Below are positions 633-18,175 of a stretch of 64,000 bases of DNA, piece by piece. Numbering within the stretch: position 1 is the stretch's first letter; every line of letters starts with the position of its first letter. Source of the stretch: a bacterium (GTDB taxonomy: Bacteria; UBA8248). The DNA lies in the NCBI GenBank assembly GCA_965261085.1, contig OZ253442.1, forward strand, positions 1,088,001 through 1,152,000, in the 5' to 3' direction. Below the pieces are notes generated by a model, which was not told where the DNA came from, made no database searches, and was given only the letters and a program-made list of their open reading frames with translations. Position numbers and translations under genes: made by a program.

Positions 633-1394
633 ATGAGCATTCCGCTGCCCCGAGAGATATCGCCCGGCGTCTTCTGGCTCGGCGACTGCCTGGTCCAGCA
701 CTCCCAGGGGAAAATCTACCACTCCTACAACGCGGCTTTTCTCGTCATCGGCTCAGAAGCCTCCATACTCGTCGAGACGGGACATCCCAAGGATTTTCCC
801 ATTATCGAGGGGCAGATGCGAGACATTCTGGCCAGAGGCGGAGGGCCGCTCAAATACCTGTTCCTGACCCACCAGGAAACCCCCCACTCGGGCGGTCTGG
901 GCCGCGTGCTCGACCAATACCCCGACCTCACCATCCACGGGGACATGTGCGACTACCACCTGGCGTTCCCCCAGCACGCGGATCGCTTCAAGGAAATGCG
1001 GGTGGGAGAGACCATCGACTTGGGGAACACGCAATTCATGGCCGTGGAGCCCGTGATCAGGGACTTGAGGAGTTCTCTGTGGGGGTTCGAGACCGCCGGG
1101 CGCGTGCTCTTTCCCGGAGACGGCTTCGCCTACAGCCACTACCATACGGACGGCCATTGCGGGATGTTCGCGGAGGAGGCCACCTCTCTCGATCTGGTCG
1201 ACGTGCTGGGCGTATTCGCCGAGCGCGCCCTGTTCTGGACCACTTTCACCGACATGAACATCTACACCGATAAACTGGAAGAACTGATAGATGCGTTGAA
1301 CGTCGACGTGGTCGCGCCGACGCACGGCCTCCCGATACGGGACATCGCGCAAACGATGCCCAAGGTGAGGGAAGGCTTAATCAGAGGCGAATAA
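633..1394 (+). CDS. MBL-fold metallo-hydrolase (FprA/ODP-like di-iron type)
   Basis: THQETPHSGGL (HxExxH), LFPGDGF and VAPTHG motifs. Confidence 0.8.
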   Translation: MSIPLPREISPGVFWLGDCLVQHSQGKIYHSYNAAFLVIGSEASILVETGHPKDFPIIEGQMRDILARGGGPLKYLFLTHQETPHSGGLGRVLDQYPDLTIHGDMCDYHLAFPQHADRFKEMRVGETIDLGNTQFMAVEPVIRDLRSSLWGFETAGRVLFPGDGFAYSHYHTDGHCGMFAEEATSLDLVDVLGVFAERALFWTTFTDMNIYTDKLEELIDALNVDVVAPTHGLPIRDIAQTMPKVREGLIRGE

Positions 1395-1421: not shown

Positions 1422-1820
1422 TTAGACGTCCTCCACCAACTCCCACAGCGTGCCCATGGTGCTTTTGGGCTGGATGAAGGCGATGAGGTGTCCGCCGAAG
1501 CCGGGTCTTGATTTCTCATCTATCAACTTGAAGCCCTGCGCCTTCATGTCGGCTATTACGCCCTCGATGTTCTTCACGTCGAAGGCCACGTGGTGGAGGC
1601 CCTCGCCGCGCTCTTCGATGAACTTGGCGAGAGGGGTGCCTTCCTTGATGGGCGAGATGGGCTCGATGAGGTCGCCGCCCAGATCCAGCATGGCCAGATC
1701 GGTCGCGCCGTCGGCCGAAGTCTCTCTCGCGAGCAGTTTCGCGCCCATGCTTTCATACAGAGCAATGGAGGCGTCCATATCCTTCACCGCGACGCCGATG
1801 TGATGAAATTTGTTGAACAT
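1422..1820 (-). CDS. mce: VOC family protein, methylmalonyl-CoA epimerase-like
   Basis: HHIGVAV, KFIEERGEGLHHVAFDV, FIQPKSTMGTLWELVE. Confidence 0.8.
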   Translation of the reverse strand: MFNKFHHIGVAVKDMDASIALYESMGAKLLARETSADGATDLAMLDLGGDLIEPISPIKEGTPLAKFIEERGEGLHHVAFDVKNIEGVIADMKAQGFKLIDEKSRPGFGGHLIAFIQPKSTMGTLWELVEDV

Positions 1821-2036
1821 ATTCGCGTTTCCTCCCGGTCAGGCGCGGCGGCGGGATTTCCTCCCCCTCGCCGCATCAATGCCTTGAAATTTGATGACCT
1901 GTCTGTTTAGCAGGCTTGCCGGAATTCCACAATCAAACCCGCCGATGCTTGAGAAACTATACTTGGCGAAGCGTTTGTCGTATTCTCGACTTATCAACGG
2001 GAATCATGCGGAGAACATATTCATAAGGAGAAATTC

Positions 2037-2597
2037 ATGGAAGGTCCGATTGATGGACACGGCACCTCCACCGCGCCGGGCGAGCGCGTCATCGACAAGC
2101 CCGAACACCCGGCCGGGGGACTCTCCACCGACAACACCGTCCATACCGAGATGATCGAGGGCGCCTTACAGCTCAAACGCGGCACGGCGGGCGATTTCGA
2201 GATATTCTGCGACGAGGGCGCGGGGATAGGCGGCACGGCCCAATATCCCACGCCGATGGCCTACCTGGCGATGGCGACGGGGTTCTGACTGCTCACCCAG
2301 GTGTCGCGGTACGCGCACATGATGAAAATGGAAATCAAGGGAGCGAGCGTCTCGGTCCGGTTCAAGAAGCTGCTGGGCGGCTCCGTGCTCAAGGGAACCG
2401 TGTTCAACAAGTGGGAGAGCGTGGACACGCACCTGAAAGTCGAATCGGACGAGCCTGCGGACAAGCTCGCGCATCTCATCAAAAACGCCAAGAACGGCTG
2501 TTTCGCCGAGGGCCTCATCACCGAGCCCGTGCCTTTGAACTCCACCGTGGAGGTGAACGGCGAGCCGTTCAGAATCGAAGGGGTCACGGCGGATTAA
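2037..2597 (+). CDS. OsmC/Ohr-like protein, probable selenoprotein (UGA=Sec at 2286-2288)
   Basis: ORFs 2037-2288 and 2301-2597 are in the same frame. Read-through gives PTPMAYLAMATGF-U-LLTQ...AKNGCFAE, with U at the first OsmC Cys position and a second Cys. Hairpin at 2301-2318. Confidence 0.8.
2301..2318 (+). promoter_or_regulatory. Candidate bacterial SECIS element
   Basis: GTG-T-CGCG-GTA-CGCG-CAC stem-loop with a bulged U and a G-starting loop, beginning 12 nt after the TGA. Confidence 0.65.
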
Positions 2598-2622
2598 CCC
2601 TTATATACATGGAGTTTTTTAG

Positions 2623-3075
2623 ATGGAATCCTTCGACGCATCATCCGACATATCCTTCGGCTCACAGCCCGAGCCTGCCGACCTCAAATCCCTCGCCGCG
2701 AGAGGGGTCAAGACCATCATCAACACGCGTTTTCCCGAGGAAGACCAGGGCGCTCTGCCGCCTGCGCGCGCCAAAGCCGAGGCCGAGGCGCTGGGGATGC
2801 GCTACGTGAACATCCCCGTCTCGCCGGTCGAGTTCAGCCCCGATTCGCTGGCCGAGGTGAGCCGCGCGCTCACGGACGCCAAGGCCCACGGGCCCACGTT
2901 CGTCCACTGAAAGGCCACGGGGCGGGCCGGGATTTGCTCGCTGAATCATCTCGCGGATGAGAACGACTGGAGCGCGGGGCAGATGGAGGGGGCCGCCGAC
3001 GCCACCGGCTTCAACTGGCGCGAAGCGCCGCTGGCGCCTAAATACCGTGAGTTCTTCGCGCAGAGGGCCGGGTAG
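2623..3075 (+). CDS. DUF442/Blh-type rhodanese/phosphatase-like sulfurtransferase, probable selenoprotein (UGA=Sec at 2908-2910)
   Basis: GSQP, GVKTIINTR, GMRYVNIPV, then FVH-U-KATGRA matching the H-C-x4-R loop; the frame stays open 54 more codons to TAG at 3073-3075. Confidence 0.8.
2921..2942 (+). promoter_or_regulatory. Candidate bacterial SECIS element
   Basis: GGCGGGC-CGGGATTT-GCTCGCT hairpin starting 10-11 nt after the TGA. Confidence 0.55.
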
Positions 3076-3550
3076 TCGCACAGGGGGAGCCGAGCGCCCG
3101 ATACCTTTGCAAGTAATTGATTATACTTACGTTATAACCTTAAGCGCCCACCGGTAATGTATCATTTATTTATCGAAAAACCCCGTGAATTTATCGATAT
3201 TTTCAGAAATTCCTTATTTTCGAACGCGCCGATTCGCTTCGCCATCATACACGCGCACGCCTTGAGTCCAATGACGGCGAATGCGGGGAAATGCGTGTTT
3301 TTCCATGTGCGAAAAATCCTGAACAAAGGAGAGAAATTGACGCCGGAACGGGTGAGGCGTTTTTGATTTTCGCTTTTGATCGTCATTCGGCAGCGCTTGA
3401 ATGTGGAATCGAGAAGTTCGTTAGAAAGGGGGATCGCGTTTTTCACTGGTCCCCGGATCAAAGCACTCCGTATGACGAGGGAAGGCCACACGCGTCAACA
3501 ATCATTCCCCCCTTGAGGGTCAAGCCCGATTGAAGAATGAGGGAAAGCCG

Positions 3551-3942: not shown

Positions 3943-5118
3943 ATGCCGAAAAGAAGCGAGTTCAAGCTCCTCAAGCGAGCCGTCGACGCGCTCGAAGTCG
4001 AAGGGAAGGATGCGGTCTTCTGGGACCGGGACCTGGCCGGCTTCGGGGTGCGGGTCCACCCCACGGGCAAGAAGGTCTACGTGGTGCAGTCCCGGGGACC
4101 CGGAGGTCCCAAACGCGTGACGCTCGGCCGGCACGGGGATATCTCGACCGATGAGGCGAGGAAGCAGGCGGCCTCCGTCATCGACCGCATCAAGCGTGGC
4201 GAGGAGCCGAAGCCCGGACCGCCCGAGGCGGAACTCACCGTGGCCGGACTGGCGGAGCGCTTCATGCGCGTCTATGCCGGGGCGCACTGCAAGCCGGGCA
4301 CGGTCGCGACGTATCGCTCCATACTGGAGAACCACGTCCTGCGGGCTCTGGGCTCGATGACGGTAGGCCAGGTCGGAGCAGCCGAGATATCGGCATTGCA
4401 CCACCGGCTTCGCGAAACGCCGAGGATGGCGAACTCCGTGGTCGACGTGCTCTCGCGGATGTTCACGCTGGCGGAGGCGTGGGAGCTGACTCCGCCCGGG
4501 AGCAACCCGTGCCGGGGGTTGCGCCGCTACAGGATGCGCCCTTGTGAGCGGTTCCTCACACCCGAGGAATACCGACGCCTGGGCCGGGTCTTACAGGAGG
4601 CGGAGGGAACGACCTGGCCGCCTGCGGTCGCGGCTATCCGGTTGTTGATGCTGACCGGATGCCGGAGTAGCGAGATACTGAACCTGCGCTGGGACGACGT
4701 GGACCGTACGGCGGGCGAATTGAGGTTGAGGGACACCAAGACGGGCCCGCGCATGGTTCCCATGACGGCGGCCGCCCTGGACGTGCTCGACGCGATCCCC
4801 CGTTCTCCGGGAAACCCCTGGGTGATCCCCGCACAGAAGGGAAGGGGCCGCCTCTCGGACCTCTATCACTACTGGCGGCCCATCCGGGCGCAGGCCGGTC
4901 TCCACGACGTACGCATCCATGACTTGCGGCATTCCTACGCCAGCAGGGCGCTGGCGCTGGGCGAGGGCTTACCCGTGATCGGGAGGTTGCTCGGACACAA
5001 GGAGGTCGCGACGACGGCGCGCTACGCGCACCTGATTCGCGACGCCGAGAAGGCCGCGGCGGTCCGGGTGGGCGAGAGCATCGGGGCCCACATCGTGCGG
5101 AACGAAGATGAGGCATGA
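3943..5118 (+). CDS. Tyrosine recombinase/integrase with arm-binding N-terminal domain
   Basis: WDRDLAGFGVRV, TGCRSSE, DTKTG, HDLRHS, LLGH, TTARYAH. Confidence 0.95.
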   Translation: MPKRSEFKLLKRAVDALEVEGKDAVFWDRDLAGFGVRVHPTGKKVYVVQSRGPGGPKRVTLGRHGDISTDEARKQAASVIDRIKRGEEPKPGPPEAELTVAGLAERFMRVYAGAHCKPGTVATYRSILENHVLRALGSMTVGQVGAAEISALHHRLRETPRMANSVVDVLSRMFTLAEAWELTPPGSNPCRGLRRYRMRPCERFLTPEEYRRLGRVLQEAEGTTWPPAVAAIRLLMLTGCRSSEILNLRWDDVDRTAGELRLRDTKTGPRMVPMTAAALDVLDAIPRSPGNPWVIPAQKGRGRLSDLYHYWRPIRAQAGLHDVRIHDLRHSYASRALALGEGLPVIGRLLGHKEVATTARYAHLIRDAEKAAAVRVGESIGAHIVRNEDEA

Positions 5119-6328
5119 GGGAGGAATGGACATGACGAAGCTCGCATACAGGACGCTCTCGAACCGGATGGTAGGGAAGCTTACGGTCGAAAAAGATACC
5201 GTATTCTGGGACAGGGAGCTCACCGGCTTCGGTGTGAGGGTCTATCCCACGGGGAGTAAGGTGTACATCGCGCAGGCGCGGGGACCGGAGGGTCCCAAAC
5301 GTGTGGCGGTTGGCCGCCAGGGGGTGATCCATGCGGAGGAGGCGCGCAAGCGGGCCGCCCTCATCATCTCCCGGATCAAGGCGGGTGAGGCGCCCGTGCC
5401 CGAACCATTGATACCCGCCGGCGGGCCGAGCGTGGCCGAATTCGCTGCGCGGTATCTCACGGAATACGTCTCGGTGCGGTGTAAACCGCGCACCGTAAAA
5501 CTGGCCCGCTCCGTGGTCCACAGGCACATCGCGCCGGCCCTGGGCAGGATGCCTCTCGCGGCGGTCGAACGCGCGCAGGTGGCGGAGCTCCACCAGAAAC
5601 TGTACGAGACGCCTGCGATTGCGAACGCCGTGGTCGGCGCCCTGTCTGCGATGTACAAACTGGCCGGGGAGTGGGGACTGGTCCCCGAGGGAGTGAACCC
5701 CTGCCGCTCCCTCGTCAAATACCCCGCACGCAGGCGGGAGCGGTTCCTGACGGAGGCGGAGTTTATGCGCTTAGGGAGCGTACTGGACAACGTCGAAGCG
5801 AAGGGCGTCGCGTCGGCTCCCGCGGTGGCGGCGATCAGGCTCTTGATACTGACCGGGTGCCGGAAGTCGGAGATCCTCACCCTTCGCTGGGAAGACGTGG
5901 CGCCGGATGAGAACGAACTGAGACTGCCCGACACGAAGACGGGCGCGCGGGCGGTCTCGCTCTCGCCGGCGGCGGTGAAGCTTCTCGCCGGGTTGCCGCG
6001 CCTGCCCGGCAACCCGTGGGTCATACCCGGCAGGAAGCCGGGCGGGCGCCTGAGCAGCCTCGATTACGTCTGGCGAATCATCCGCGCGCAAGCGGGCCTG
6101 GAAGACGTCCGTATCCACGATTTGAGACACTCCTACGCCAGCCGCGCCCTGGCGCTGGGGGAGTCCCTCCCGATGATCGGGAAGTTGTTGGGCCACAGCC
6201 AGATACAGACCACGGCGCGCTATGCGCATCTGGCGCGCGACTCGGTGAAAGAGGCCGCAGAACGCATCGCCGCGAGCATCGCGGCGGATATCATGGGCGG
6301 AGACCGGGGACCGGCTTCGGTTTCATGA
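5108..6328 (+). CDS. Tyrosine recombinase/integrase (second, paralogous; true start may be a few codons downstream)
   Basis: WDRELTGFGVRV, TGCRKSE, HDLRHS, LLGH, TTARYAH. Confidence 0.95.
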   Translation: MRHEGGMDMTKLAYRTLSNRMVGKLTVEKDTVFWDRELTGFGVRVYPTGSKVYIAQARGPEGPKRVAVGRQGVIHAEEARKRAALIISRIKAGEAPVPEPLIPAGGPSVAEFAARYLTEYVSVRCKPRTVKLARSVVHRHIAPALGRMPLAAVERAQVAELHQKLYETPAIANAVVGALSAMYKLAGEWGLVPEGVNPCRSLVKYPARRRERFLTEAEFMRLGSVLDNVEAKGVASAPAVAAIRLLILTGCRKSEILTLRWEDVAPDENELRLPDTKTGARAVSLSPAAVKLLAGLPRLPGNPWVIPGRKPGGRLSSLDYVWRIIRAQAGLEDVRIHDLRHSYASRALALGESLPMIGKLLGHSQIQTTARYAHLARDSVKEAAERIAASIAADIMGGDRGPASVS

Positions 6329-6543
6329 CTTCGTCGTCGTAGCGGCCCACGCGCGTCGGCAACGGCTGTTCGGGATCGCATTTGTACGCTCTCTGCGAAT
6401 GCCGAAGGCAACGCCGATATCCCTGGCCGCCGACAAGCATTCCCGACGAACGCCACGACATTCGATCCGAAATAATCGGCGACGGCGGCTATGGTCACCG
6501 ACAGCGCGAGGACCGTCAGCACGGCATTGAAAGCCGATTTCAC
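6220..6543 (-). CDS. Small hypothetical protein with hydrophobic N-terminus
   Basis: Signal/TM-like N-terminus; its 3' end overlaps the integrase, so doubtful. Confidence 0.3.
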   Translation of the reverse strand: MKSAFNAVLTVLALSVTIAAVADYFGSNVVAFVGNACRRPGISALPSAFAESVQMRSRTAVADARGPLRRRSHETEAGPRSPPMISAAMLAAMRSAASFTESRARCA

Positions 6544-6698
6544 AGTTCATTCTCTTCTCTGTAAGCGTTTCCTATCACCGGCGTCCTGTCAGGATTTGAG
6601 CGCCGCCGAGAGGCCGAGCCGGGTGGGTCCGGGGCGAACCAGGGAAGGCCCGAGAGGGTTTTCGGGCTTTCCCATCCCATCCACAGGAGGAGATTCAT

Positions 6699-8981
6699 AT
6701 GGCTCAGGTTAAACCGCTTATCCGCTCCATTCCATTGAACCGGCTGGAACTCGCGCCGGAGAACGTCCGCAAGACGCCGGCCGACCCGGCCGCGCTCGAG
6801 GAGCTCAAGGCCTCCATCGCGGCCCACGGTCTGCTGGAGAACTTGATCGTCAGGATAGAGGACACAGGCCATGACCCCGGATCGGGTCCGGGGCAGGCTC
6901 ATGTCGACCGCTGCGCCGTGGTCGCCGGCGGCCGCCGCCTCGCGGCCATGAAAGCGCTCGCCGAAGAGGGGATACTGGACGCGGACCACCCCGTGCCCTG
7001 CCGGGTGATCGGCGCGGCGGAGAACGCCGGGGAACTCTCTCTCGCCGAGAACGTAGTACGTGTCGCCATGCACCCCGCCGACCAGGTGGTCGCGTTTTTG
7101 AAGCTCTCAGAAGCAGGCGTCACCGTGGCCGCGATCGCCGCGCGCTTCGGCGTCACGGAACGCCTGGTCGAGCAGCGTCTCAGTCTCGGCGGCGTCGCCC
7201 CGGAACTGCTAGACGCCTACCGGGCGCAGGAGATGGACCTCGATACCCTGAAAGCCTTCACGGTCACCATCGACCACGCCCGCCAGAAAGCGGTCTGGGA
7301 GCAGGTGAAGGAACAGGGCTACGGGCCCAGCGGCTGGCAGGTGAGGCGCATGCTGACCGAGGAGAGCGTGCCTGCCGCCTCCGCCGTGGCGCGCTTCGTC
7401 GGTATGGAGGCCTATGAGGCGGCAGGCGGTACGCTCACGCGGGACCTCTTCGCGGGGGAGGACGGGAGCGGGACGTGGTTCGACGACCCCGTTCTCCTGA
7501 ACGAACTCGCGACGGAGAAGCTTCGTGCGGCGGCTGACGATCTGACGACGCGCTGGAAGTGGGCCGAGGCGGTACTGGAAGCCGACTGGAGCGCGGTCGC
7601 GGGCTTCGGGAGGATATCCCCCGAGCCGGGGGTCCCCACCGAGGAGGAGAAAGCCGAACGGGAGAGTCTGCGTGCCCGCCAAGACGAACTCGCAGATCTG
7701 GATGACGACGAGTGGACCGAGGAACTCGCCTGCGAGGCCGAAGGGATCGAGTCGCGCCTCCGTACGATCAAAGAAGCCGTGGAAGCGCGGGCCGCGTTCC
7801 GTGAGCAAGATTACGCGATAGCGGGCTGCATCGCCACGGTCGGCCACGACGGCGCGCTCAAGGTCATCAAGGGCTTGGTCAAGCCGGAAGACTTGCCGGA
7901 GCGGACGGGCGCAGGCTTCGAGGGCAATGGAACCGATGCCGGCCGCGTGGATTCACCGGTGATCAGCGAGCCGCTCGCGACGCCCACCGACCCGCGCGCG
8001 AAGGTCCGCGAGGAGACAGGGATCGGAATCGGACTCGCGGACGATTTGCGCGCCGTCCGCACGACGCTCGTCAAGGCGCACTTGTCCGGGGATTTCGAGG
8101 CGGCCTTCGACCTCACCCTGTTCCAGCTCGCACGCGCCGTCTTCAAGGAAGGCTACCGGGCCGACGCGCTCGACATCGCCTTCAGGGAGACCGCCGACAG
8201 GCCGCCGCCTCGGGCGAGCGACGATGACTTCGCCGCCTGGAGCCCGGGCGAGGCCATGCTCGCCGAGCACTCGGGCCTCTCTCTTGGCTGGATGGAGGAT
8301 GAGGACGACGGAGCGGCCTTCACGAAGATGCGGGCGCTTCCCGAGGAGGAGAAGCAGGCGCTGTTCGCGGCAGCCGTCGCGCGCACGCTCAAGGGCCGGC
8401 TCGCCTTCGAACCCGGCGCCCGGCCCGAACTCGAAACCACCATCGCCCGTCTCGATATCGATTTTGCGAAGCATGTGCGCCCGGGCGCCGCGATGTTCTG
8501 GTCGCGCATCAGGAAAGACCGCATCCTCGCCGTGGGGCGCGCGACGCTTGGTCCCGTCTGGGCTTCTGCGCGCGCGAAATACAAGAAGGCGGACTTGGCC
8601 CGCGCGATGGAGGAAGCCTTCGCCGCCGACCCGCCCGCGGGGCTGAACCCCAAAGCCCGGGCCGCCGCCCTCGCCTGGACGCCTCCAGGATTCACGCCCT
8701 TCGATACGGGCCGCACGGAAGAAGCCGGGGAAGACGGCTCGCCGGCAGGTGAACCCGAACCGGATTCCGCTACGGCCCCGGACGCAGTCGATGAAGAAAC
8801 ACCCGATGCGGCTTGCGGCGACACTCCGGCGCGCGGGGAACTCGCCCGGGCGGTCGATGCCCTGAACGCGGTCCCCACAGCGGACGGCGGCCCGAGGGTG
8901 ATCGTACAAGAGATCGGCCCTGTCAACGGCCACGATAGCGGCGAGGGAATCGATATCCCCGAATTCCTGCGCGGCGACTGA
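6699..8981 (+). CDS. ParB/RepB/Spo0J family protein (long ICE type)
   Basis: ELKASIAAHGLLENL, VVAGGRRLAA, SLAENVVR; AGGAG RBS. Confidence 0.9.
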   Translation: MAQVKPLIRSIPLNRLELAPENVRKTPADPAALEELKASIAAHGLLENLIVRIEDTGHDPGSGPGQAHVDRCAVVAGGRRLAAMKALAEEGILDADHPVPCRVIGAAENAGELSLAENVVRVAMHPADQVVAFLKLSEAGVTVAAIAARFGVTERLVEQRLSLGGVAPELLDAYRAQEMDLDTLKAFTVTIDHARQKAVWEQVKEQGYGPSGWQVRRMLTEESVPAASAVARFVGMEAYEAAGGTLTRDLFAGEDGSGTWFDDPVLLNELATEKLRAAADDLTTRWKWAEAVLEADWSAVAGFGRISPEPGVPTEEEKAERESLRARQDELADLDDDEWTEELACEAEGIESRLRTIKEAVEARAAFREQDYAIAGCIATVGHDGALKVIKGLVKPEDLPERTGAGFEGNGTDAGRVDSPVISEPLATPTDPRAKVREETGIGIGLADDLRAVRTTLVKAHLSGDFEAAFDLTLFQLARAVFKEGYRADALDIAFRETADRPPPRASDDDFAAWSPGEAMLAEHSGLSLGWMEDEDDGAAFTKMRALPEEEKQALFAAAVARTLKGRLAFEPGARPELETTIARLDIDFAKHVRPGAAMFWSRIRKDRILAVGRATLGPVWASARAKYKKADLARAMEEAFAADPPAGLNPKARAAALAWTPPGFTPFDTGRTEEAGEDGSPAGEPEPDSATAPDAVDEETPDAACGDTPARGELARAVDALNAVPTADGGPRVIVQEIGPVNGHDSGEGIDIPEFLRGD

Positions 8982-9008
8982 CCCGCAGCAGCAAACCCCT
9001 CCGACACG

Positions 9009-9042
9009 GCGCCCCGCAGCATATGCCTGCGGGGCGCTTTTT
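9009..9042 (+). terminator. Rho-independent terminator
   Basis: GCGCCCCGCAG...CTGCGGGGCGC followed by TTTTT. Confidence 0.7.
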
Positions 9043-9070
9043 CGTTTTCACGCCCCATGGAGTCCATGAC

Positions 9071-10792
9071 ATGAACTGCAACCAACATGCTACGAGCAAT
9101 AAACTTCCGGAGCGGATCCGCGCCCGGGTCTTTGAGGGCGCGCTCAGTCGCGTCACGAGGATGTACGCCGCAGGACTCGCCGACGTATTCACCGAGACGC
9201 TCCAGAACAGCCGCCGGGCCGGCGCCACGCGGGTCCGCGTCACCATCGACGCCTCAGAGGAAACGCCCGGCGTCCTGTCGGTCACCTTAGCCGACGATGG
9301 GGCCGGCATCGCCGATCCCGCCGTGCTCCTCTCGTTCGGTGAGAACGGATGGAGTGAGGACCTCGCGCGCCGCGAGGACGCGGCGGGGATGGGGTTCCTG
9401 AGCCTCGCGCGCCGTGGCTGCACGGTTGTTTCCAGACCGCGTTCTGATGGTGGCGAGACGGCCCCGGCTTGGCGCGTCGATCTCACGCCCGCCCACTTCC
9501 TGGGAGAAGAAGAGGCGGAGGTCCTCCCCGATGCCGACGCGCCCAAGCCCCACGGGACGGCGGTCCGCTTCCGGACGGAAGAGGCCCGCGAGGCGATCCG
9601 GCGCACGCTCGAGAACGCGGTACGGCATTACCCGCTCCCGGTCACGCTCGATGGTGAGAGCCTCCCCCGCCGGGCCTTCCTCGATGGCGCCGTCCATGCC
9701 GAGTCCTGGCGGGGCCTCGCCTTCGGCGTCTTCACGGGGCGCAGCCGCTACCGCGACGAGCCGGACTTGAACTTCCACGGCCTGATCCTGGCGGCCCACC
9801 TGCCCACGGTCCATCCCGTAGACGGCCTGGCCTTCTCGGTCCGCGCCGATGTCGGGAACTGTCCCGAACTCGAACTCGTCCTCCCGGCCAGGAAAGAAGC
9901 GGTCGAGACGCCCTTCTTGGATGAGATGAGAGAAGCCGCGCGCACCGCGGTCTACCAGGCGATGGCTAAGGCCGATCCCGCGCCGGTCGTCGCATTCCAA
10001 GACTGGAAGCGCGCGCGGGCGGCCGGGGTCGAACTGCCGGTACCGGCGCCTGCGCTCCGGCCCTGGCGGCCTCCCGTCGCCGATACCGACAACTGGCTCG
10101 CGGGACCAGCACCCGAACCCCTGCCCACAGGCGCGCTCGTTATGGACGTGGACTTTGAGGCGCCCGAAGCCCAGGCGCTGTGGCGCGCCGCCGAACGCAG
10201 CGGAATGTCTCCGCGGCTTTTCGAGACGGACCGGCGGTTCGAAGGCTACGGCTGGTACGACACGCTCCCCCGCGTCACCGGTGTCCAGACCCGGATCGTG
10301 GGCAACGGGGAAGTCCGTCCGCTCGTGGACTACCAAACCCCGCCCGTCGAGACGCCCCCGCGGCCGGACGCAATCCGCGTGAAGCTCGATGTCCAATACC
10401 CGGACGGAACGAATGAAACACTCGCGCTCGACGCCGACCTCGCCTTCGCCGGTGAGGCCTGGGCCTGGCTCTCAGACGTGCGTCCGCTGGTCACGGCCGG
10501 GAGCGCCATCGAACCCGCAGAACTCGCCGGGATCCTGCGCGACGCCTTCTTCTCGCCCTCGGACGAGTCGGACGCGGACAGCTGGGAGACCCAGCGAACG
10601 CGCTTCGAGGAGGAAGCCACCCACCTGGCCATCGGTCTCCTGTGCTCGGAAGAGGAGGCGCTCAGGCGCTCGATCGCAGAGGCCGTGCGCCGCGAACTCT
10701 CCTGGCTCATGCCGCGGGACCGCGCGGTCACCATCACCGTGCGCGGTGGTGAGGTCGGCGTCGTGTTCTCTGCCGGGGAGGCCTCGCGATGA
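9071..10792 (+). CDS. GHKL/HATPase-domain protein
   Basis: ETLQNSRRAGA (N box), DDGAGI (G1 box), DAAGMGF, HGTAVRF. Confidence 0.8.
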   Translation: MNCNQHATSNKLPERIRARVFEGALSRVTRMYAAGLADVFTETLQNSRRAGATRVRVTIDASEETPGVLSVTLADDGAGIADPAVLLSFGENGWSEDLARREDAAGMGFLSLARRGCTVVSRPRSDGGETAPAWRVDLTPAHFLGEEEAEVLPDADAPKPHGTAVRFRTEEAREAIRRTLENAVRHYPLPVTLDGESLPRRAFLDGAVHAESWRGLAFGVFTGRSRYRDEPDLNFHGLILAAHLPTVHPVDGLAFSVRADVGNCPELELVLPARKEAVETPFLDEMREAARTAVYQAMAKADPAPVVAFQDWKRARAAGVELPVPAPALRPWRPPVADTDNWLAGPAPEPLPTGALVMDVDFEAPEAQALWRAAERSGMSPRLFETDRRFEGYGWYDTLPRVTGVQTRIVGNGEVRPLVDYQTPPVETPPRPDAIRVKLDVQYPDGTNETLALDADLAFAGEAWAWLSDVRPLVTAGSAIEPAELAGILRDAFFSPSDESDADSWETQRTRFEEEATHLAIGLLCSEEEALRRSIAEAVRRELSWLMPRDRAVTITVRGGEVGVVFSAGEASR

Positions 10793-11280
10793 AAAAGCCA
10801 TATACGGTCCAGTGCGGATATACGGCCCACTTCGCCAATACGGTCACCGTGGAAGCGGAGACGCTCGAGGAAGCGCTCGAAAAAGCCATCGAGACCGCCA
10901 ACGCCGATGAGGACTGGCGCTCGACCGGCCATTGCAGCAGGACTTTCGTGGACGCCGTCTGCGAGGGCGCCGGCGCCGATCCCCGGGACACGGACGCGGC
11001 ATGGCCGGTCCCCGAGCGGTTCACCGAGCGGGGCGAGCCGCCGGTCGTCACCCTGACCGATCCCGGCCGGGCGGGCGGCGGCACCATCGAGGTTTCCGGG
11101 GGCCGGGCCCTGCTCCGCTTCCAGACCCCTGACGCCACGATCACGAGCGAGATTTCCGATCCGCCCCATCCGCCCGGCAACAAGCCGCTCGTGACGATCC
11201 GCCGCCGCGACGACGGCGCGCCCGACGTCACCGTGACCGGGGGCCGGGCGCGCGTCCGCATTCTCGATTTCCAACCCTGA
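10789..11280 (+). CDS. Hypothetical ICE protein
   Basis: ATGA-coupled to the upstream gene; backbone codon usage. Confidence 0.7.
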   Translation: MKKPYTVQCGYTAHFANTVTVEAETLEEALEKAIETANADEDWRSTGHCSRTFVDAVCEGAGADPRDTDAAWPVPERFTERGEPPVVTLTDPGRAGGGTIEVSGGRALLRFQTPDATITSEISDPPHPPGNKPLVTIRRRDDGAPDVTVTGGRARVRILDFQP

Positions 11281-11347
11281 CGCCAAACGACACCGGAGCC
11301 TCTCCGGCCTTTCCACGTCCGCCTTTCACGTAGAGGAGAACGTCCCG

Positions 11348-11740
11348 ATGGAACTCATCACACCCGAGCAGCGCGAACAACTTATCGCCAACGGCGCCGA
11401 CCGGGGCGCAGACCACATGCCCGTGGTCAAACTGTTCAATCCGTGCGGCGCCGGGACCTGGCTCGTGACCGAACTCGACCCAGAAGACACATCCGTCGCG
11501 TTCGGGCTCGCCGATCTCGGCTTCGGTACTCCCGAGGTCGGGAGCTTCTCTATCCAGGAACTCGAATCCTTCCGGGGGCCGTTAGGCCTCGGTATCGAGC
11601 GCGACCTGTATTTCGAGGGGAAATTCACCCTCGCCGTCTACGCCGAAGCGGCACGCGCCGCAGGCCGTATCGTCGAACACGGCTCCGAACTCGCCGCCGC
11701 CGCCCGGCGACGGAGCAAGAGCGCCGCCACCTGCGGCTGA
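11348..11740 (+). CDS. DUF2958 family protein
   Basis: PVVKLFNPCGAGTWLVTE, FGLADLGFGTPE, IERDLYF. Confidence 0.85.
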   Translation: MELITPEQREQLIANGADRGADHMPVVKLFNPCGAGTWLVTELDPEDTSVAFGLADLGFGTPEVGSFSIQELESFRGPLGLGIERDLYFEGKFTLAVYAEAARAAGRIVEHGSELAAAARRRSKSAATCG

Positions 11741-11775
11741 TCGATCCTTTTCCCCTATCCATTCTGGAGAGAATC

Positions 11776-12093
11776 ATGCCCGACACCGTATCCCGAACTC
11801 CGGCCATACATCCCATGGACCCGAGGCGCGGTGAGAGCCTCTCGCCGATGTTCACGGCCTTTCTCTGTTGGCTGCTCGGCTTGCCGCCCATGACGGAACC
11901 CGCAATCACCGGGGTCGCGGTCACGGGGGACAGCGTCCTCGCCGCCACCGATACAGATCCGTTCTTCAACGCGCACATAGGCAGTCTCACTGATTTCGAG
12001 CGCAACATCCGAGGCTGGGGCGAGGCCTGCGGCGCCGATGCCGCAACGATCGAAGACCTCCTCACCAGGCTCCGCAGCGCCGCCCGTACCTGA
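11776..12093 (+). CDS. Hypothetical ICE protein
   Basis: GGAGA RBS before the ATG at 11776; C-terminal part of ORF 11443-12093. Confidence 0.65.
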   Translation: MPDTVSRTPAIHPMDPRRGESLSPMFTAFLCWLLGLPPMTEPAITGVAVTGDSVLAATDTDPFFNAHIGSLTDFERNIRGWGEACGADAATIEDLLTRLRSAART

Positions 12094-12223
12094 CCCGCAC
12101 TTCTTCGAGCTGCGCCGGGACGAGTTCGAGACCGGCCCGGCCGGGGCGAACCGAGAGGTCCCGGGGGAGTGATCCTCCTTCTGGACGACCGACCCCCATT
12201 CCCCGACATCCGAGGAGACTTCT

Positions 12224-15200
12224 ATGTCGCAAGTCCTGACGGCGGACGCCTGTCCGAACGCCCCCCGCTCCACCCCGCCGACTTCCGAGGCCGCGCTCCT
12301 CGAAGCGGCCAAGGCGCTGCTGCCCGTCCTGGCGGCCGGACGTCCGCTCGACGCGAACGTGCTCAGGGACACCATGACGCGCGCCTTCGGCGCAACCGAT
12401 GCGCAGGGCGCCTGGCTCTGGAAAGACGCCTACGAGGCGGCGGAAGCGGCGGTCGTTCTCTTCCTCAAACGCTACGGGCGGGCCATGCGCCGCCGGGCAG
12501 GGGCCGGACCCGAAGGCCCCGCCGCCATGCTGGCCATGCTGCAAAAACTCTCCGCGCTGGAACCCTCCCACACGAAGCGCTCGCAGGAACAAGTCCGCCT
12601 GCAGCAGTTCTCGACCCCGCTCGGCCTCGCCTACGCCGCGCTTCGGGCCGCCGCGCTCCGACCCGGCGACGTCGTTCTGGAGCCGAGCGCCGGGACCGGG
12701 ATGCTGGCCGTGATGGGCTGGTGCGCGCTCGGGTGTGAGCGCGCGCTCCACCTGAACGAGATTGCGAGCACCAGGGCCGGTCTCCTCGCCCGCCTCTTCC
12801 CCGAGGCGAGCGTCACACGCCACAACGCCGAGGCCATCGCCGATTATCTCCCCGGCGTCCGGGCGGACGTCGTCCTCATGAACCCGCCGTTCTCGGCGAC
12901 GCCGGGCGTCGCCCGCATCCGGCATGATGCGGACCTCCGCCACATACGCTCGGCGTTTTGTGCGCTGGCGCCGGGCGGACGTCTGGTCGCCGTCACGTCT
13001 GCGGGCTGTATGCCTGGGGATGCCGCCTGGAACTCGGTCTTCTCATCCTTTGAGGCGCCCGCGCGTGTCGTGTTCACGATGGAGATCGAGGGGCGCGCCT
13101 ACGCGAGGCGAGGGACCACGTTCGACACCCGTCTCACCGTGATCGACCGGGGCGAGGAGCGCGGGAACGCCGTGATCGATCCCGCTGCCCGGGCGGCGAA
13201 CGCTGAGAAACTTCTCCGGGCCGTCATCGCGGGAGTGCCCGCGCGCCTCGCCACTAGCACCACCCGTGCGACCGTACCCGCCGCCCCGCTTCGCGATCTT
13301 TTCGGCGAGACGCCGGCGCTCAATGCCAAAGAAAGCAAGACCAAGGAGAGGGACGCCGGCAAGACGACATCGAATCCGCAGCAAGATATGGGTCCCGTCT
13401 CGGAACTCGCATACGAGGCGGCCCCGCCCTGCGGCGACGCCGCGGCCATGGGCCCCTACGCGCCCTGGAAGCCGAGTGTCGTGAGCGTATCCGGCGCCGT
13501 CGCGCATCCCACGCCGCTCGTCCAGTCGGCCGCCATGGCCGCCGTCGAGCATCCAAAGCCCTCGCACCGCCCGCTGCTGCCCGAACGCGTCGTCACCGAG
13601 GGTCTCTTGTCGGACGCGCAGATCGAGAGCGTCGTCCTGGCAGGCGAGGCCCACAACCGCCATCTCTCCGCCCGCTACAGGATCGGCGCCGGCTGGGAGA
13701 CCGTCCGCCGCTGCGACGAAGACGATACCACTGCCGAGTCCGTCACCGAGGACGGTGAGGCGCTCTCGGCGCAGGTCCGGTTCCGTCGCGGGTGGATGCT
13801 GGGCGACGGCACCGGGTGCGGCAAGGGCCGCGAGGTCGCGGCGGTCATCCTCGACAACCGGCTCCGGGGACGGAGCCGCGCGCTCTGGCTCTCGGCCTCC
13901 GCCAACCTGCTCGAAGACGCCCGCCGGGACTGGGCCGCGCTCGGGGGCCGTGAGGAAGACGTGATCCCGCTTTCCGGTTACCGGCAAGGGGCCGACATCC
14001 CGCAGGATGAAGGCATCCTGTTCGCGACCTACGCGACGCTGCGCGCGCCGGCCCGCGAGGGCAAGGCCTCGCGGCTCGACCAGGTCGTCGCCTGGTTGGC
14101 AGGCAGCCTCGAGGAAGAAGACCGCCACGGGTATGAGAGCGTGATCGTGTTCGACGAGTCCCACGCCATGGCGAACGCCGCAGGATCCAGGGGATCGCGA
14201 GGCAATATGAAACCCTCGGCCCAGGGACGGGCGGGACTCAGGCTCCAGCACGCATTGCCCGACGCCCGTGTCCTCTACGTCTCGGCCACCGGAGCCACCA
14301 CCGTGACCGGCCTCGCCTACGCGGTGCGCCTGGGACTCTGGGGCGCCGGGGAGACGCCCTTCGAGAGCCGGGGTGATTTCGTATCGGCGATGGAGGCGGG
14401 CGGCGTCGCCGCCATGGAGGTGGTCGCCCGGGACTTGAAGGCCCTGGGCCTCTATCAGGCGAGGGCGTTATCTTATGAGGGGATCGAGGTCGACATCCTC
14501 GAACACGCGCTCACGCCCGAGCAGCGCCGCATCTACGACGCCTACGCCGGCGCCTTCAAGGTCATCCACGCCAACTTACAAGACGCGCTCGAAGCCACCG
14601 GGATCACGCAGGGCGAAGAGACCCTGAACAGGAACGCGAAATCAGCCGCGCTCTCCGCCTTCGAAGGCGCCAAGCAGCGGTTCTTCGGCCACCTTTTGTG
14701 CGCCATGAAGTGTCCCTCGCTCATCCGCGCGGTCGAAGCCGACCTCGAAGCCGGCCGCTCGGCCGTGATCCAACTCGTCTCCACGGGCGAGGCCCTGATG
14801 GAGCGAAGGGTCGCGGAGATCCCGCCCTCTGAATGGGACGACCTATCGATCGACCTGACGCCCAGGGAATACGTGCTCGACTTCCTGGCGCACGCCTTCC
14901 CGGTGCAGTTACAGGAGCCCTTCACCGACGAGGAGGGTAACCTCATGAGCCGGCCCGCCGTCGATGAGGACGGGAACCCCGTGCTCTCCCAGGAGGCCCT
15001 CGTCAAACGCGAAGCGCTGATCGGGAAACTGGCGTCGCTCCCGCCGGTGCCCTCCGCCCTCGATCAAATCGTGCACCACTTCGGCCATGACGCCGTGGCC
15101 GAGGTCACAGGCCGCTCCCGCCGGGTGCTCAGGACCCAAGACGCGCAGGGCGTGCGACTCGCCTTGCGCCCGCGTCCGGCCTCGGCCGGACTCGCCGAGA

Positions 15201-16660
15201 CGGCGGCCTTCATGGACGCGAAAAAGCGAATACTCGTCTTCTCCATGGCCGGGGGCACGGGGCGCAGCTACCACGCCGACTTGGGATCCGCCAACACGCA
15301 GCGCCGGGTCCACTACCTGCTCGAACCCGGCTGGCGGGCCGACCAGGCGATCCAGGGCCTGGGGCGCACCCACAGGACGCACCAGGCCTCGGCCCCCCTG
15401 TTCCGGCCCGTCACCACCGACGTCAAGGGAGAGCGGCGCTTCATCGCCACCATCGCGAGGAGACTCGATTCCCTGGGCGCCATCACCCGTGGCCAGCGGA
15501 ACTCGCAGACCGCAATGGACGGCGAGGCGACGCTCTTCCGCGCCGGCGACAACCTGGAAAGCCCCTACGCCCGGGCGGCGCTCCGCCAGTTCTATGGAGC
15601 GCTCTGGCGGGGCGGTGTCCCCGGCTGGTCGCTCGGGCGCTTCGAGGAGGCAACCGGTCTCAAGCTCACTTACGAGGGAGCACTCAAGGAAGACCTCCCG
15701 CCCATGCCGAAGTTCCTGAACCGCCTGCTGGCGCTTCCCATAGAGGAGCAGAACGCGCTGTTCGCAGAACTCGAATCGCGCGTCGAGTCCAACATCGAAC
15801 AAGCCGTCGAGGCGGGGACCTATGAGGTAGGCGTCGAGACCCTGCGAGCGGACTCGCTCACCGCGGCCGGCAGCGAGACCCTCTACACCCACCCCGATAC
15901 CTGCGCGGCGACCGGCCTCGTCGAGATCCTCCGACGCGACCGGCTCGTGCCCACGACGGCCGACGCCGCGCTCGATATGTCCAGGAAGGCCGGCGCGCCG
16001 GCGCTCGTCGTGAACGCCCGCTCAAAACGGGCGGCCGCCCTCCTCCCCGCGCCCTCGATGATGTTCGACGACGGGGGCGTGCAGGAACGGGTGCGCCTCC
16101 TGCGGCCAGCGGCCCGGGAGGGCATGGCGAGGGCCGAACTCGATGCCTCGAACTGGCGCGAGGCGGAGGAAGCCGAATGGCGCGCCCTCTGGGAGGACGA
16201 GGTCGCCGGCCTGCCGACGCACACCGAATCGCGTTTCTGGCTCGTCACCGGGCTCCTCCTGCCGGTCTGGGACCGTCTGGGCGCCGAGAACATGCGGGTG
16301 CGACGCCTCGACACCGACGACGGTGAAGCGATGATCGGGCGCGCCTTGGACGCAGGGGGCGTCCGGGCCGTGCGCGCCGCCTTTGGTCTCGACGGAGGTC
16401 CCTCTCTCACCTCCGGGGAAGCCTTCGATGCCGTCATGGGGCGCGGCGAGGTACTGACCCTCGCGAACGGCTGGCGCCTCGCGCGCCGCCGCATCATGGG
16501 GGCGCCGCGCCTGGAGATCGAGGGACCCGACGACCGGCACGTCACAACCCTCAAGCGCCTCGGCTGTACGGTCGAGATCGTCTCCTGGAGCGCCCGCGTC
16601 TTCGCGCCAGACGCCGTCGTACTCGCCCGCGTCCTCGAAAGCCGGCCCCTCGCGGGCTGA
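12224..16660 (+). CDS. Strawberry-notch-like methyltransferase/helicase fusion
   Basis: LQQFSTP, VLEPSAGTG, MNPPFS (N6-MTase); GDGTGCGKG, FDESH, QGLGRTHR (SF2-like). Confidence 0.92.
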   Translation: MSQVLTADACPNAPRSTPPTSEAALLEAAKALLPVLAAGRPLDANVLRDTMTRAFGATDAQGAWLWKDAYEAAEAAVVLFLKRYGRAMRRRAGAGPEGPAAMLAMLQKLSALEPSHTKRSQEQVRLQQFSTPLGLAYAALRAAALRPGDVVLEPSAGTGMLAVMGWCALGCERALHLNEIASTRAGLLARLFPEASVTRHNAEAIADYLPGVRADVVLMNPPFSATPGVARIRHDADLRHIRSAFCALAPGGRLVAVTSAGCMPGDAAWNSVFSSFEAPARVVFTMEIEGRAYARRGTTFDTRLTVIDRGEERGNAVIDPAARAANAEKLLRAVIAGVPARLATSTTRATVPAAPLRDLFGETPALNAKESKTKERDAGKTTSNPQQDMGPVSELAYEAAPPCGDAAAMGPYAPWKPSVVSVSGAVAHPTPLVQSAAMAAVEHPKPSHRPLLPERVVTEGLLSDAQIESVVLAGEAHNRHLSARYRIGAGWETVRRCDEDDTTAESVTEDGEALSAQVRFRRGWMLGDGTGCGKGREVAAVILDNRLRGRSRALWLSASANLLEDARRDWAALGGREEDVIPLSGYRQGADIPQDEGILFATYATLRAPAREGKASRLDQVVAWLAGSLEEEDRHGYESVIVFDESHAMANAAGSRGSRGNMKPSAQGRAGLRLQHALPDARVLYVSATGATTVTGLAYAVRLGLWGAGETPFESRGDFVSAMEAGGVAAMEVVARDLKALGLYQARALSYEGIEVDILEHALTPEQRRIYDAYAGAFKVIHANLQDALEATGITQGEETLNRNAKSAALSAFEGAKQRFFGHLLCAMKCPSLIRAVEADLEAGRSAVIQLVSTGEALMERRVAEIPPSEWDDLSIDLTPREYVLDFLAHAFPVQLQEPFTDEEGNLMSRPAVDEDGNPVLSQEALVKREALIGKLASLPPVPSALDQIVHHFGHDAVAEVTGRSRRVLRTQDAQGVRLALRPRPASAGLAETAAFMDAKKRILVFSMAGGTGRSYHADLGSANTQRRVHYLLEPGWRADQAIQGLGRTHRTHQASAPLFRPVTTDVKGERRFIATIARRLDSLGAITRGQRNSQTAMDGEATLFRAGDNLESPYARAALRQFYGALWRGGVPGWSLGRFEEATGLKLTYEGALKEDLPPMPKFLNRLLALPIEEQNALFAELESRVESNIEQAVEAGTYEVGVETLRADSLTAAGSETLYTHPDTCAATGLVEILRRDRLVPTTADAALDMSRKAGAPALVVNARSKRAAALLPAPSMMFDDGGVQERVRLLRPAAREGMARAELDASNWREAEEAEWRALWEDEVAGLPTHTESRFWLVTGLLLPVWDRLGAENMRVRRLDTDDGEAMIGRALDAGGVRAVRAAFGLDGGPSLTSGEAFDAVMGRGEVLTLANGWRLARRRIMGAPRLEIEGPDDRHVTTLKRLGCTVEIVSWSARVFAPDAVVLARVLESRPLAG

Positions 16661-16746
16661 ACCCGCACGTGCGGCCGGCCCGCATACGTATGGCCGTCCG
16701 GCGGGGGGCCGTTATGCCTTCTTCATCATTCAAGGGAGATCAATCC

Positions 16747-17007
16747 ATGACTGCGCACACACTACCCAGGAACCCCGACTACGCCTTCTGCCCGGCCTAC
16801 GGCCCGGGGGACGCGCCGCAGGAGATACGGCTCGTCATCGACGGGATGAGCGGGAGCATCCCCACCGCCCTCGTCGCCTTGACTCTCGAGGACGCACAGC
16901 GATTCTGCGACAGGCTCAACGCCCGGCTCGGAATGGACCGGGAGGCCTGGTCCGCTCTGGCCGCACGCGCAATGGAGGAGACTCCAAACGATGGGAGCGC
17001 CGGTTGA
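16747..17007 (+). CDS. Hypothetical ICE protein
   Basis: GGAG RBS before the ATG at 16747. Confidence 0.6.
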   Translation: MTAHTLPRNPDYAFCPAYGPGDAPQEIRLVIDGMSGSIPTALVALTLEDAQRFCDRLNARLGMDREAWSALAARAMEETPNDGSAG

Positions 17008-17362
17008 GCCACCACCCCGCCACCCAGACCGGCAGGCTTAGAATCACCGCGTAGACGGCGATGGCGAGCGGGCCGAGCAGACCCGCCACCAGCGACGCCG
17101 CCACCGTGACGACGCCGAGCACAACCCCCGCCGTCCAGGCGGTGCTGCGGTAACCCAGCCGCCACAGCCGCCGGCAAGCGAGCGCCAGGGGGAGGCCGCA
17201 CGGCGCGACCGGAAGCAACGCCACCGCCGATAACGGCAGCATCGCCCAGGTCGCGGGCTCGTTCCCGAAGCGCAGGACAGCGGTCACGGCCACCCCGGCC
17301 GGCAGCCACAGGAGCGCCGGCGCCCAGAAGCCGCGCCGCTCGATACCTCTGCGATTGTCCAT
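16916..17362 (-). CDS. Small multi-TM membrane protein
   Basis: Four hydrophobic segments; AAGG RBS. Confidence 0.55.
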   Translation of the reverse strand: MDNRRGIERRGFWAPALLWLPAGVAVTAVLRFGNEPATWAMLPLSAVALLPVAPCGLPLALACRRLWRLGYRSTAWTAGVVLGVVTVAASLVAGLLGPLAIAVYAVILSLPVWVAGWWLNRRSHRLESPPLRVRPERTRPPGPFRAGR

Positions 17363-17549
17363 ACCTTATCTCACCCGAATCCCGGACCGGGCGCAAGCCC
17401 GGACGCGGTCCGCGAGCGGTACTCATCGGCCGTGAACCTGCCCGGGAGAGGTAGAGAGAAGCGGGGAGCCGGGCAAATGCCCGGTAGGGAGAGGGAGACG
17501 GTCTCCCGGTCCCGACGCCGGGGACGACAACCCGAGAGGAGGCTGGACA

Positions 17550-17696
17550 ATGTATGAGAACGACTTCGACCCCGACAACCTGACCGGTGACGAACTCCTC
17601 GCCGAGATCGGACTCGACGCGTACACGATCCGCAAGCTGCGCAGTGAGGCGCTCCCCACCGAGGCGGGAAGAGGAGAGGAGTTCAGTAGCGTATAG
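17550..17696 (+). CDS. 48-aa acidic micro-protein upstream of ssb (absent from the ORF track)
   Basis: GAGGAGG RBS; MYENDFDPDNLTGDELLAEIGLDAYTIRKLR...; paralog at 41485-41616. Confidence 0.75.
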   Translation: MYENDFDPDNLTGDELLAEIGLDAYTIRKLRSEALPTEAGRGEEFSSV

Positions 17697-17774
17697 GGCG
17701 AACCGAGGGGCCGGGGAGAGAGGATTCCCGGTCCCATCAACTGTCATCCACATCACACCACAAGGAGAATCACC

Positions 17775-17983
17775 ATGGCATTCGGACTCAACCGCGCGGA
17801 ACTGATCGGACGTCTCGGCGCAGACGTCACCATCAACCACCTCACGAGCGGCGGACGCGTCGCCAACATCTCGATCGCAACCGACGAGGGCTACGTCGAC
17901 AAGCAGACAGGCGACCGGGTCGACAAGACCGAGTGGCACCGGGTCGTGACCTTCCAGCCCGGCCTGGTCGACATGTTCGAGAA
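17775..17983 (+). pseudogene. ssb: ssb 5' half, interrupted by the nested element
   Basis: LNRAELIGRLGAD...KTEWHRVV; joins in frame with 48970-49207 to give 148 aa. Confidence 0.93.
17971..17983 (+). repeat. attL core of the nested element
   Basis: ACATGTTCGAGAA, identical to 48957-48969. Confidence 0.9.
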
Positions 17984-18125
17984 ACATATTATACCATAAC
18001 GGACAATCGTGCGATTGTCTGCGCATGAAACGACTATATCATATATTTTTCAATAAATTATAATTGATTCCTGTCTTTGATCTAGCGTAATACGTACGTT
18101 TGTGCGCGCCCCGGTTTCTTTTTAT

Positions 18126-18145
18126 GTGTTGACATCAGTGTTGCT
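18126..18145 (+). promoter_or_regulatory. Candidate integrase arm-type sites (left)
   Basis: GTGTTGAC-atca-GTGTTGCT; similar tandem at 48861-48879. Confidence 0.5.
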
Positions 18146-18175
18146 AAATTTGATGCACGGTGCTATAGTCCGGGC

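Follow-up and report, generated by a model that had tools for sequence, protein, structure and literature searches.

A probable two-gene selenoprotein unit with an OsmC-related protein and a selenocysteine-containing DUF442 protein in a UBA8248 bacterium

We analysed a stretch of 64,000 nucleotides (nt) from a bacterium of the GTDB lineage UBA8248 (assembly GCA_965261085.1, contig OZ253442.1, positions 1,088,001 to 1,152,000 of the forward strand), here called the window, whose own numbering is used below. Two adjacent genes near its beginning, named A and B, have one in-frame TGA each, which in both cases aligns with a catalytic cysteine of Cys-type homologs. From the comparative sequence evidence, both are almost certainly read through as selenoproteins, and the locus is very probably a two-gene unit encoding the two of them. 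Gene A falls squarely within the OsmC-related selenoproteins, a known family, and offers nothing new beyond its correct annotation. Gene B is, as a well-supported reading of its sequence and predicted fold, a member of a selenoprotein family that we found neither in print nor in curated models, namely a selenocysteine (Sec, U) variant of the sulfurtransferase-like DUF442 domain with the protein tyrosine phosphatase (PTP) fold.

Two co-oriented genes with internal TGA codons

Reading positions 1700-3500 with TGA translated as U gave two co-oriented genes, 25 nt apart, with the following features:

2025..2030, plus strand: AAGGAG, a Shine-Dalgarno-like motif 6 nt ahead of the gene A start codon (ATG), read from the sequence
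2037..2597, plus strand: gene A, predicted OsmC-related selenoprotein of 186 amino acids (aa); ATG at 2037, TAA at 2595-2597; U84 in the motif U-L-L-T, second Cys at C155
2286..2288, plus strand: predicted Sec codon (UGA) of gene A in the context ATGF-U84-LLTQ, its sole in-frame TGA
2301..2318, plus strand: SECIS-like hairpin of gene A, GUG(U)CGCG-GUA-CGCGCAC, beginning 12 nt past the UGA; from folding and covariation
2611..2614, plus strand: GGAG, a Shine-Dalgarno-like motif in the 25-nt intergenic gap, 8 nt ahead of the gene B start codon (ATG), read from the sequence
2623..3075, plus strand: gene B, predicted Sec-containing DUF442 (PF04273) PTP-fold sulfurtransferase-like protein of 150 aa; ATG at 2623, TAG at 3073-3075
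2908..2910, plus strand: predicted Sec codon (UGA) of gene B in the context FVH-U96-KATGR, its sole in-frame TGA
2921..2942, plus strand: SECIS-like hairpin of gene B, GGCGGGC-CGGGAUUU-GCUCGCU, beginning 10 nt past the UGA; from folds and pairing across the family

Under translation table 11, the same DNA yields open reading frame fragments of 83 and 98 aa from gene A and of 95 aa from gene B. A first-pass annotation, made by a model from the letters and their open reading frames, had given coordinates and motifs for both genes that match our reading and its translation exactly, and the hairpins that it had placed 10-12 nt past each TGA were found at 12 nt (gene A) and 10 nt (gene B). The predicted P-loop of gene B is H95-U96-K-A-T-G-R101, and an invariant cysteine, C105, lies nine residues past the Sec.

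The whole genomes of relatives were searched in six frames with both genes. Gene B was matched in 33 of 61 related genomes, including all 22 of the genus, and is found, with its TGA, in 37 of the 51 genomes of the phylum. Its 56 matches in the 61 related genomes hold one TGA in 52 cases, two in one case, and none in three; the TGA-free matches are a 44-residue fragment at a contig end and two weak or distant matches of the Cys type. The matches span the TGA in 53 of the 56 cases, down to 34% identity, and a second copy of gene B in this genome, with 39% identity, keeps the TGA as well. In the extracted homologs, the predicted Sec is always residue 96 of a stand-alone protein of ~150 aa, which has its own ribosome-binding site. 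Gene A was matched in 43 of the 61 genomes and has three copies in this one; the in-frame TGA is present in 150 of 150 among the matches listed, down to 38% identity (11 further matches exist). The reading frame past the TGA, which had been described as open in the window, is thus kept in the relatives of both genes.

Among the homologs, the gene B paralog L062 (G010:C5) contains a second in-frame TGA at a conserved Trp (DFDW), which likely reflects truncation or decay of that copy. Another locus near a contig end, L122 (G035:C46:2844-4072, minus strand), may encode an OsmC fusion protein with two Sec residues: its two units of the OsmC-related selenoprotein follow each other head to tail, with no stop between them in the read-through.

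The genome, which consists of a single 4.27-Mb contig, contains adjoining selA (579 bits) and selB (384 bits) genes. The selD gene (336 bits; G000:C1:3459-4421, minus strand) itself holds one in-frame TGA and is of the Sec type. One tRNA-Sec match exceeds the Rfam gathering score, at 75.9 bits, and ARAGORN calls it as tRNA-SeC with the anticodon TCA. The machinery for Sec insertion (selA, selB, selC, and selD), which the first-pass annotation had named as a check on its proposal, is therefore all present in the genome. Neither selA nor selB is interrupted by a stop when read with table 11, which means that TGA does not serve as a general sense codon here; this, together with the several gene A orthologs that terminate in TGA, indicates that TGA is an ordinary stop in the lineage, special sites excepted.

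Hairpins past the TGA codons and the case for selenocysteine

Bacterial selenocysteine insertion sequences (SECIS) of the Escherichia coli fdhF type are short, G+C-rich hairpins that lie ~11 nt past the UGA and carry G/U in their apical loop, and a SECIS recruits SelB carrying Sec-tRNA(Sec) for the decoding of the UGA as Sec. The hairpins of genes A and B resemble this type in being short, G+C-rich, and ~11 nt past the UGA, and in the G/U of the apical loop; the hairpin of gene A also shares, in this window, a bulged U on the 5' side. They were matched by no Rfam model.

The hairpin of gene A is supported by covariation. Across 22 family members, 94.7% of the cells in the alignment of the hairpin are paired, and both-sided changes occur in three of the six pairs, such as GCGCG/CGCGC to AAGCG/CGCUU in class-level relatives. 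Its covariation score was 0.387, against 0.141 in shuffles, and was equalled by 0 of 500 shuffles; in controls in which the hairpin was slid, the paired fraction dropped to 11-67%. Synonymous variation is suppressed over codons +1 to +13, where 3 of 11 columns are variable compared with 82 of 114 elsewhere (20 orthologs, p = 0.005).

In the hairpin of gene B, all 168 of 168 cells are paired across 24 family members down to ~35% protein identity, compared with 33-56% in slid controls, and three pairs vary on one side (G-U/A-U) with the pairing kept. Four codons within the hairpin, namely GCC (Ala), GGG (Gly), UGC (Cys), and UCG (Ser), are the same in all 24 members, and the 3' arm of the hairpin is made of the codons of the invariant Cys105-Ser-Leu. 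Fixed synonymous codons of this kind argue against a conservation that comes from the protein only. Over codons +1 to +13, synonymous columns are variable in 5 of 12 cases, compared with 52 of 71 elsewhere (20 orthologs, p = 0.04).

Several observations speak against the role of these hairpins and, more broadly, against Sec insertion. The 60 nt that follow each TGA fold no better than shuffled sequences (z scores of -0.76 for A and +0.59 for B), which means that neither hairpin is significant by itself, and it is the comparative data on relatives that make them more than chance. A scan of positions 1900-3300 at E <= 10 gave no match to an Rfam family. In the gene B hairpin, compensatory change on both sides was seen in 0 pairs across the 24 members, and since the hairpin overlaps the invariant peptide GRAGxCSL, its conservation could be partly protein-driven. 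The synonymous-site test of gene B is weak, with p = 0.04 only and with related, non-independent genomes; indeed, the p-values of both genes overstate the case because the genomes of the orthologs are related. Finally, the case for Sec at U84 and U96 is made at the level of the sequence and not of the protein.

On balance, we propose that the small hairpin just 3' of each UGA would act as a bacterial SECIS, recruiting SelB with Sec-tRNA(Sec); the UGA would then be read as Sec, and translation would run on to the real stop. If the TGAs were real stops instead, the two genes would be pseudogenes, or split-gene pairs giving products of 83 and 95 aa. Public gene callers do give 95-aa proteins for gene B (53 of 55), and UGA termination may compete with Sec insertion. 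However, in both genes the stop coincides precisely with the catalytic Cys, the downstream frame is kept in dozens of genomes at identities as low as 34-38%, and a conserved hairpin follows each TGA in a genome with complete Sec machinery; real stops are, in our judgement, very improbable. The UGA might also be read as Cys or Trp, via near-cognate decoding or an altered code. Nothing specific favours such a reading apart from the general point that sequence alone cannot tell read-through from Sec insertion, and it is scarcely plausible in a lineage in which TGA is an ordinary stop and in which tRNA-Sec, SelB, and hairpins at the position of a SECIS are all present.

Families, folds, and active sites of the two proteins

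Gene A scored 163.9 bits against the NCBIfam model NF041052, 'OsmC-related (seleno)protein' (cut-off 95), and 48 bits against the Pfam OsmC model. Its U84 and C155 align with both Cys residues of the OsmC-like protein PDB 3cje, which agrees with the proposal of the first-pass annotation that the TGA of gene A stands at a catalytic Cys. Both residues are invariant in a 20-sequence family alignment, as is the whole stretch U84-L-L-T87. Gene A shares the U-L-L-T motif, the second Cys, and the likeness to OsmC by Pfam and 3cje with the OsmC-related family (NF041052, PF02566), and there is no essential difference between them; gene A has an N-terminal extension of ~33 residues beyond the NF041052 model, besides its three copies in the genome. 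A 2026 catalogue of selenoproteins lists an 'OsmC-like protein, PF02566, UxxT', credited to a Sargasso Sea study of 2005 (PMC13188914). Protein A would thus be an OsmC/YhfA-type thiol (here selenol) peroxidase-like protein, in which U84 would replace the first catalytic Cys and C155 is, from the alignment, likely the resolving Cys.

Gene B scored 52.3 bits against Pfam PF04273 (DUF442, or BLH_phosphatase), above the gathering cut-off of 26.1, with weaker matches to the PTP-type Pfam families PF22741, PF13350, and PF22784. Two scores count against a closer assignment: gene B remains below the cut-offs of TIGR01244 (50.6 vs. 85.85) and of Blh NF040641 (50.1 vs. 625), and on its sequence it is a relative, not a member, of these subfamilies. 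A search of 1.84 billion representative proteins gave 1469 matches to gene B at E <= 0.001. An alignment of 34 of these shows no variation at H95 and R101 and at least 90% conservation of C96, so that the Sec of gene B would take the place of the nucleophile in an H-C-x4-R loop. Of the full-length public proteins, the closest one, of 162 aa and 50% identity, has Cys at the position of U96 and reads FVHCKAIGRAGVCSF. The TGA of gene B, which had likewise been placed at a catalytic Cys, hence pairs both with the C of HCx4R in the 34 sequences and with the Cys of this 50%-identical homolog.

The AlphaFold model of protein B has a predicted local distance difference test (pLDDT) score of 95.5. A Foldseek search of the PDB with this model returned 2f46 (template modelling (TM) score 0.75-0.79) and 3gxh at the top, both of which are DUF442 structures, followed by PTP and dual-specificity phosphatase (DSP) structures, whereas a phmmer search of the PDB with the gene B sequence gave no match at E <= 0.01. 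A PF00581 (rhodanese) domain was likewise absent from gene B at E <= 0.01. The description 'Sec-DUF442 sulfurtransferase-like protein' in the first-pass annotation therefore stands as regards the DUF442 family (PF04273), but the kinship with rhodaneses that went with it does not, as the fold is that of PTPs and PF00581 is not matched. The reported rhodanese-related selenoproteins, which it had cited as precedent, do not apply to gene B either: DUF442 is a PTP-fold family distinct from PF00581, and the family of gene B has no entry in the 2026 catalogue.

Comparisons of gene B with known proteins indicate in which respects it stands apart. In the case of the Cys-type DUF442 domains, that of Blh is reported to move sulfur from thiosulfate to cyanide or glutathione (GSH) (PMC5823870), and that of the Cupriavidus SQR to be a rhodanese that loses its activity through the C94S exchange (PMC9163753). 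Gene B resembles these N-terminal domains (Blh of Xylella and Agrobacterium; Cupriavidus SQR, with the active Cys94) in Pfam family, predicted fold, and H-C-x4-R loop, but it has Sec for Cys, stands alone without fusion to a dioxygenase or SQR, and contains an extra invariant Cys. No sqr or pdo genes were seen beside gene B. In the case of the PF00581 rhodanese-like selenoproteins (forms 1-5 in Table 1 of PMC13188914), a sulfur-transfer active-site Cys is replaced by Sec as predicted for gene B, but the fold and the Pfam family are different. Proteins of the PTP/DSP fold, such as Tk-PTP (5z5a), PFA-DSP1 (7mol), and TpbA (4r0s), share with gene B the overall fold and a nucleophile that opens the P-loop before a helix; in contrast, their loop is Cx5R and not Cx4R, and their identity to gene B is 14-21%. 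We know of no natural Sec-containing member of the PTP fold.

The extra cysteine, C105, occurs only in the Sec subfamily and in its closest Cys relative. It may be a resolving residue that pairs with U96; alternatively, it may be fixed mainly since its codon belongs to the hairpin.

Protein B would be a cytoplasmic, stand-alone PTP-fold DUF442 protein with Sec as the nucleophile of its P-loop (H-U-x4-R). It would most likely be a sulfurtransferase, with the sulfane sulfur carried on the selenolate as Se-S and then passed to a thiol acceptor; we infer this role because the Cys-type DUF442 domains have measured sulfurtransferase activity. A Sec-dependent PTP-fold phosphatase, or an arsenate/oxyanion reductase, is a different function that the fold might suggest. 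The Foldseek matches past the two DUF442 structures are all PTP/DSP proteins (Tk-PTP, PFA-DSP1, TpbA, and PTPMT1), the weaker Pfam matches are of the PTP type, and 'putative phosphatase' stands in the titles of the solved DUF442 structures. However, the loop is Cx4R, as in DUF442, and not the Cx5R of PTPs. DSP phosphatases carry a general-acid Asp in a loop, and gene B has no conserved Asp at that place in the loop. Moreover, the DUF442 domains known to have a measured activity are all sulfurtransferases. We therefore consider a phosphatase or reductase unlikely, and a sulfurtransferase remains the preferred function for protein B.

Genomic contexts and the place of gene B among selenoproteins

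We scanned one genome per species in 185,579 species with the pattern [GE]RAG[IV]CSLxH and found 49 loci of the gene B subfamily, all in metagenome-assembled genomes (MAGs) labelled Nitrospinota, Nitrospinaceae, Candidatus Tectomicrobia, or just 'bacterium'. Gene A is located directly upstream of gene B in 20 of the 49 loci. The two genes are 24-26 nt apart in 16 of these, 76-86 nt apart in two, and 211 and 700 nt apart in another two. At 27 loci, a transglutaminase-like gene (PF13369, Transglut_core2) lies upstream of gene B on the same strand and ilvD adjoins gene B, the transglutaminase-like gene being within ~140 nt of gene B in 25 of the 27; neither neighbour is found upstream in the remaining two. 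The transglutaminase-like context is that of gene B homologs from other genera (44-68% identity) and of the paralog within the genus, and this gene is an older and wider neighbour of gene B than gene A is.

The trio of transglutaminase-like (PF13369), Sec-DUF442, and ilvD genes is conserved in the gene B homolog loci L097-L114 and L084-L096, and the paralog loci have a gene for a thiamine pyrophosphate (TPP)-dependent enzyme further upstream.

Both genes are covered by contigs from metatranscriptomic sequencing, which come from four libraries in two studies. The TGA of gene A is covered by three of these contigs and that of gene B by four, with both codons unchanged, and three contigs bridge the junction between the genes (2563-3085, 2507-2728, and 2560-2858). 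Cover is missing at 1850-1990, and in parts of 2500-2750 in some runs. Genes A and B are probably co-transcribed.

How far the pair may act as a unit, such as the selenium-dependent redox/sulfur-transfer module proposed by the first-pass annotation, has to be weighed against the wider contexts of gene B. The two genes may be mere neighbours: both would encode selenoproteins, but the real context of gene B would be the transglutaminase-like gene, and the tandem would be recent, genus-specific, and without joint function. We hold this to be a serious possibility that falls only a little short of an even chance. The transglutaminase-like gene precedes gene B at 27 of the 49 loci against 20 for gene A. 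The A-B loci occur only in close relatives, with 76-96% identity, of one genus, while the other genera and the paralog keep the transglutaminase-like context; therefore, the tandem is a genus-level feature, and the claim of a joint function for A and B is weakened. The evidence for a common transcript has its own weak points, as the contigs of the RNA libraries may contain DNA and are no proof of a single transcript, and a consensus scan for promoters and terminators found no promoter and only an irrelevant, terminator-like site on the minus strand. On the other hand, the gap of 24-26 nt in 16 of the 20 A-B loci of the genus and the contigs that bridge the junction fit co-expression, and co-expressed Sec redox proteins are compatible with joint use.

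With these points considered, we lean, by a small measure over even, to the fuller reading, in which gene B represents a selenoprotein family that has not been described and would be the first selenoenzyme of the PTP fold found in nature. Its members would be stand-alone DUF442 proteins with an H-U-x4-R loop, whose family-wide SECIS is interlocked with the codons of the Cys-Ser-Leu past the active site, and within the genus a copy would have been placed behind an OsmC-type selenoprotein as a bicistronic unit. In the boldest version of this reading, proteins A and B would exchange sulfur or oxidising equivalents through their selenols.

Other genes in the window surround the pair. Upstream, two adjacent and mutually similar MBL/ODP-like (metallo-beta-lactamase fold) genes are located at 3-623 and 633-1394 (plus strand), a place conserved in the genus, and a glyoxalase-fold gene at 1422-1820, on the opposite strand, lies between them and gene A. 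Right past gene B starts a block of high G+C content (3943-19393), with 67-71% G+C compared with ~58% around the selenoprotein genes. The block opens with tandem tyrosine integrases (3943-5118 and 5108-6328) and ends with a third one (18176-19393); it also holds a Strawberry-notch-like helicase of 1478 aa (AAA_34 and Helicase_C_4, 12224-16660) and a HATPase_c protein (9023-10792). The block is probably a mobile island that has integrated here; a scan for tRNA genes as a possible integration site found none in the whole window. Further downstream, an ankyrin-repeat protein of 310 aa is encoded at 21084-22016 (minus strand) in a stretch of low G+C content.

The family of gene B is scarcely visible in existing resources. 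A review of May 2026 tabulates 119 prokaryotic selenoprotein families, and its table has no entry for PF04273, TIGR01244, DUF442, or a phosphatase, its rhodanese entries all being PF00581 or NF models of that fold (PMC13188914). Our full-text searches of an open-access library gave no paper that joins a selenoprotein with DUF442, TIGR01244, PF04273, or BLH_phosphatase, and NCBIfam release 20 has no dedicated model for gene B. Among the public proteins similar to gene B, 53 of 55 are exactly 95 aa long, and one named relative is a 'sulfur transferase domain-containing protein [Nitrospinae bacterium]'. The first-pass annotation had foreseen that standard annotation would fragment such genes, and these public calls bear it out for gene B; because they end at residue 95, the active site is lost. 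Selenoprotein lists are built by homology to known families, so an unlisted family stays invisible.

The BSepDB paper places MAGs labelled Nitrospinota/Nitrospinaceae (GTDB phylum UBA8248) in the top ten of selenoprotein-rich organisms, with 48-54 genes of known families (PMC13326102); since this ranking rests on known families only, the selenoproteome of the lineage is probably undercounted. The Sec-containing DUF442 protein, if true, would add the PTP fold to those of natural selenoenzymes, and because a 50%-identical Cys form exists, the two would be a natural Sec/Cys pair for probing the role of selenium in sulfur-transfer chemistry.

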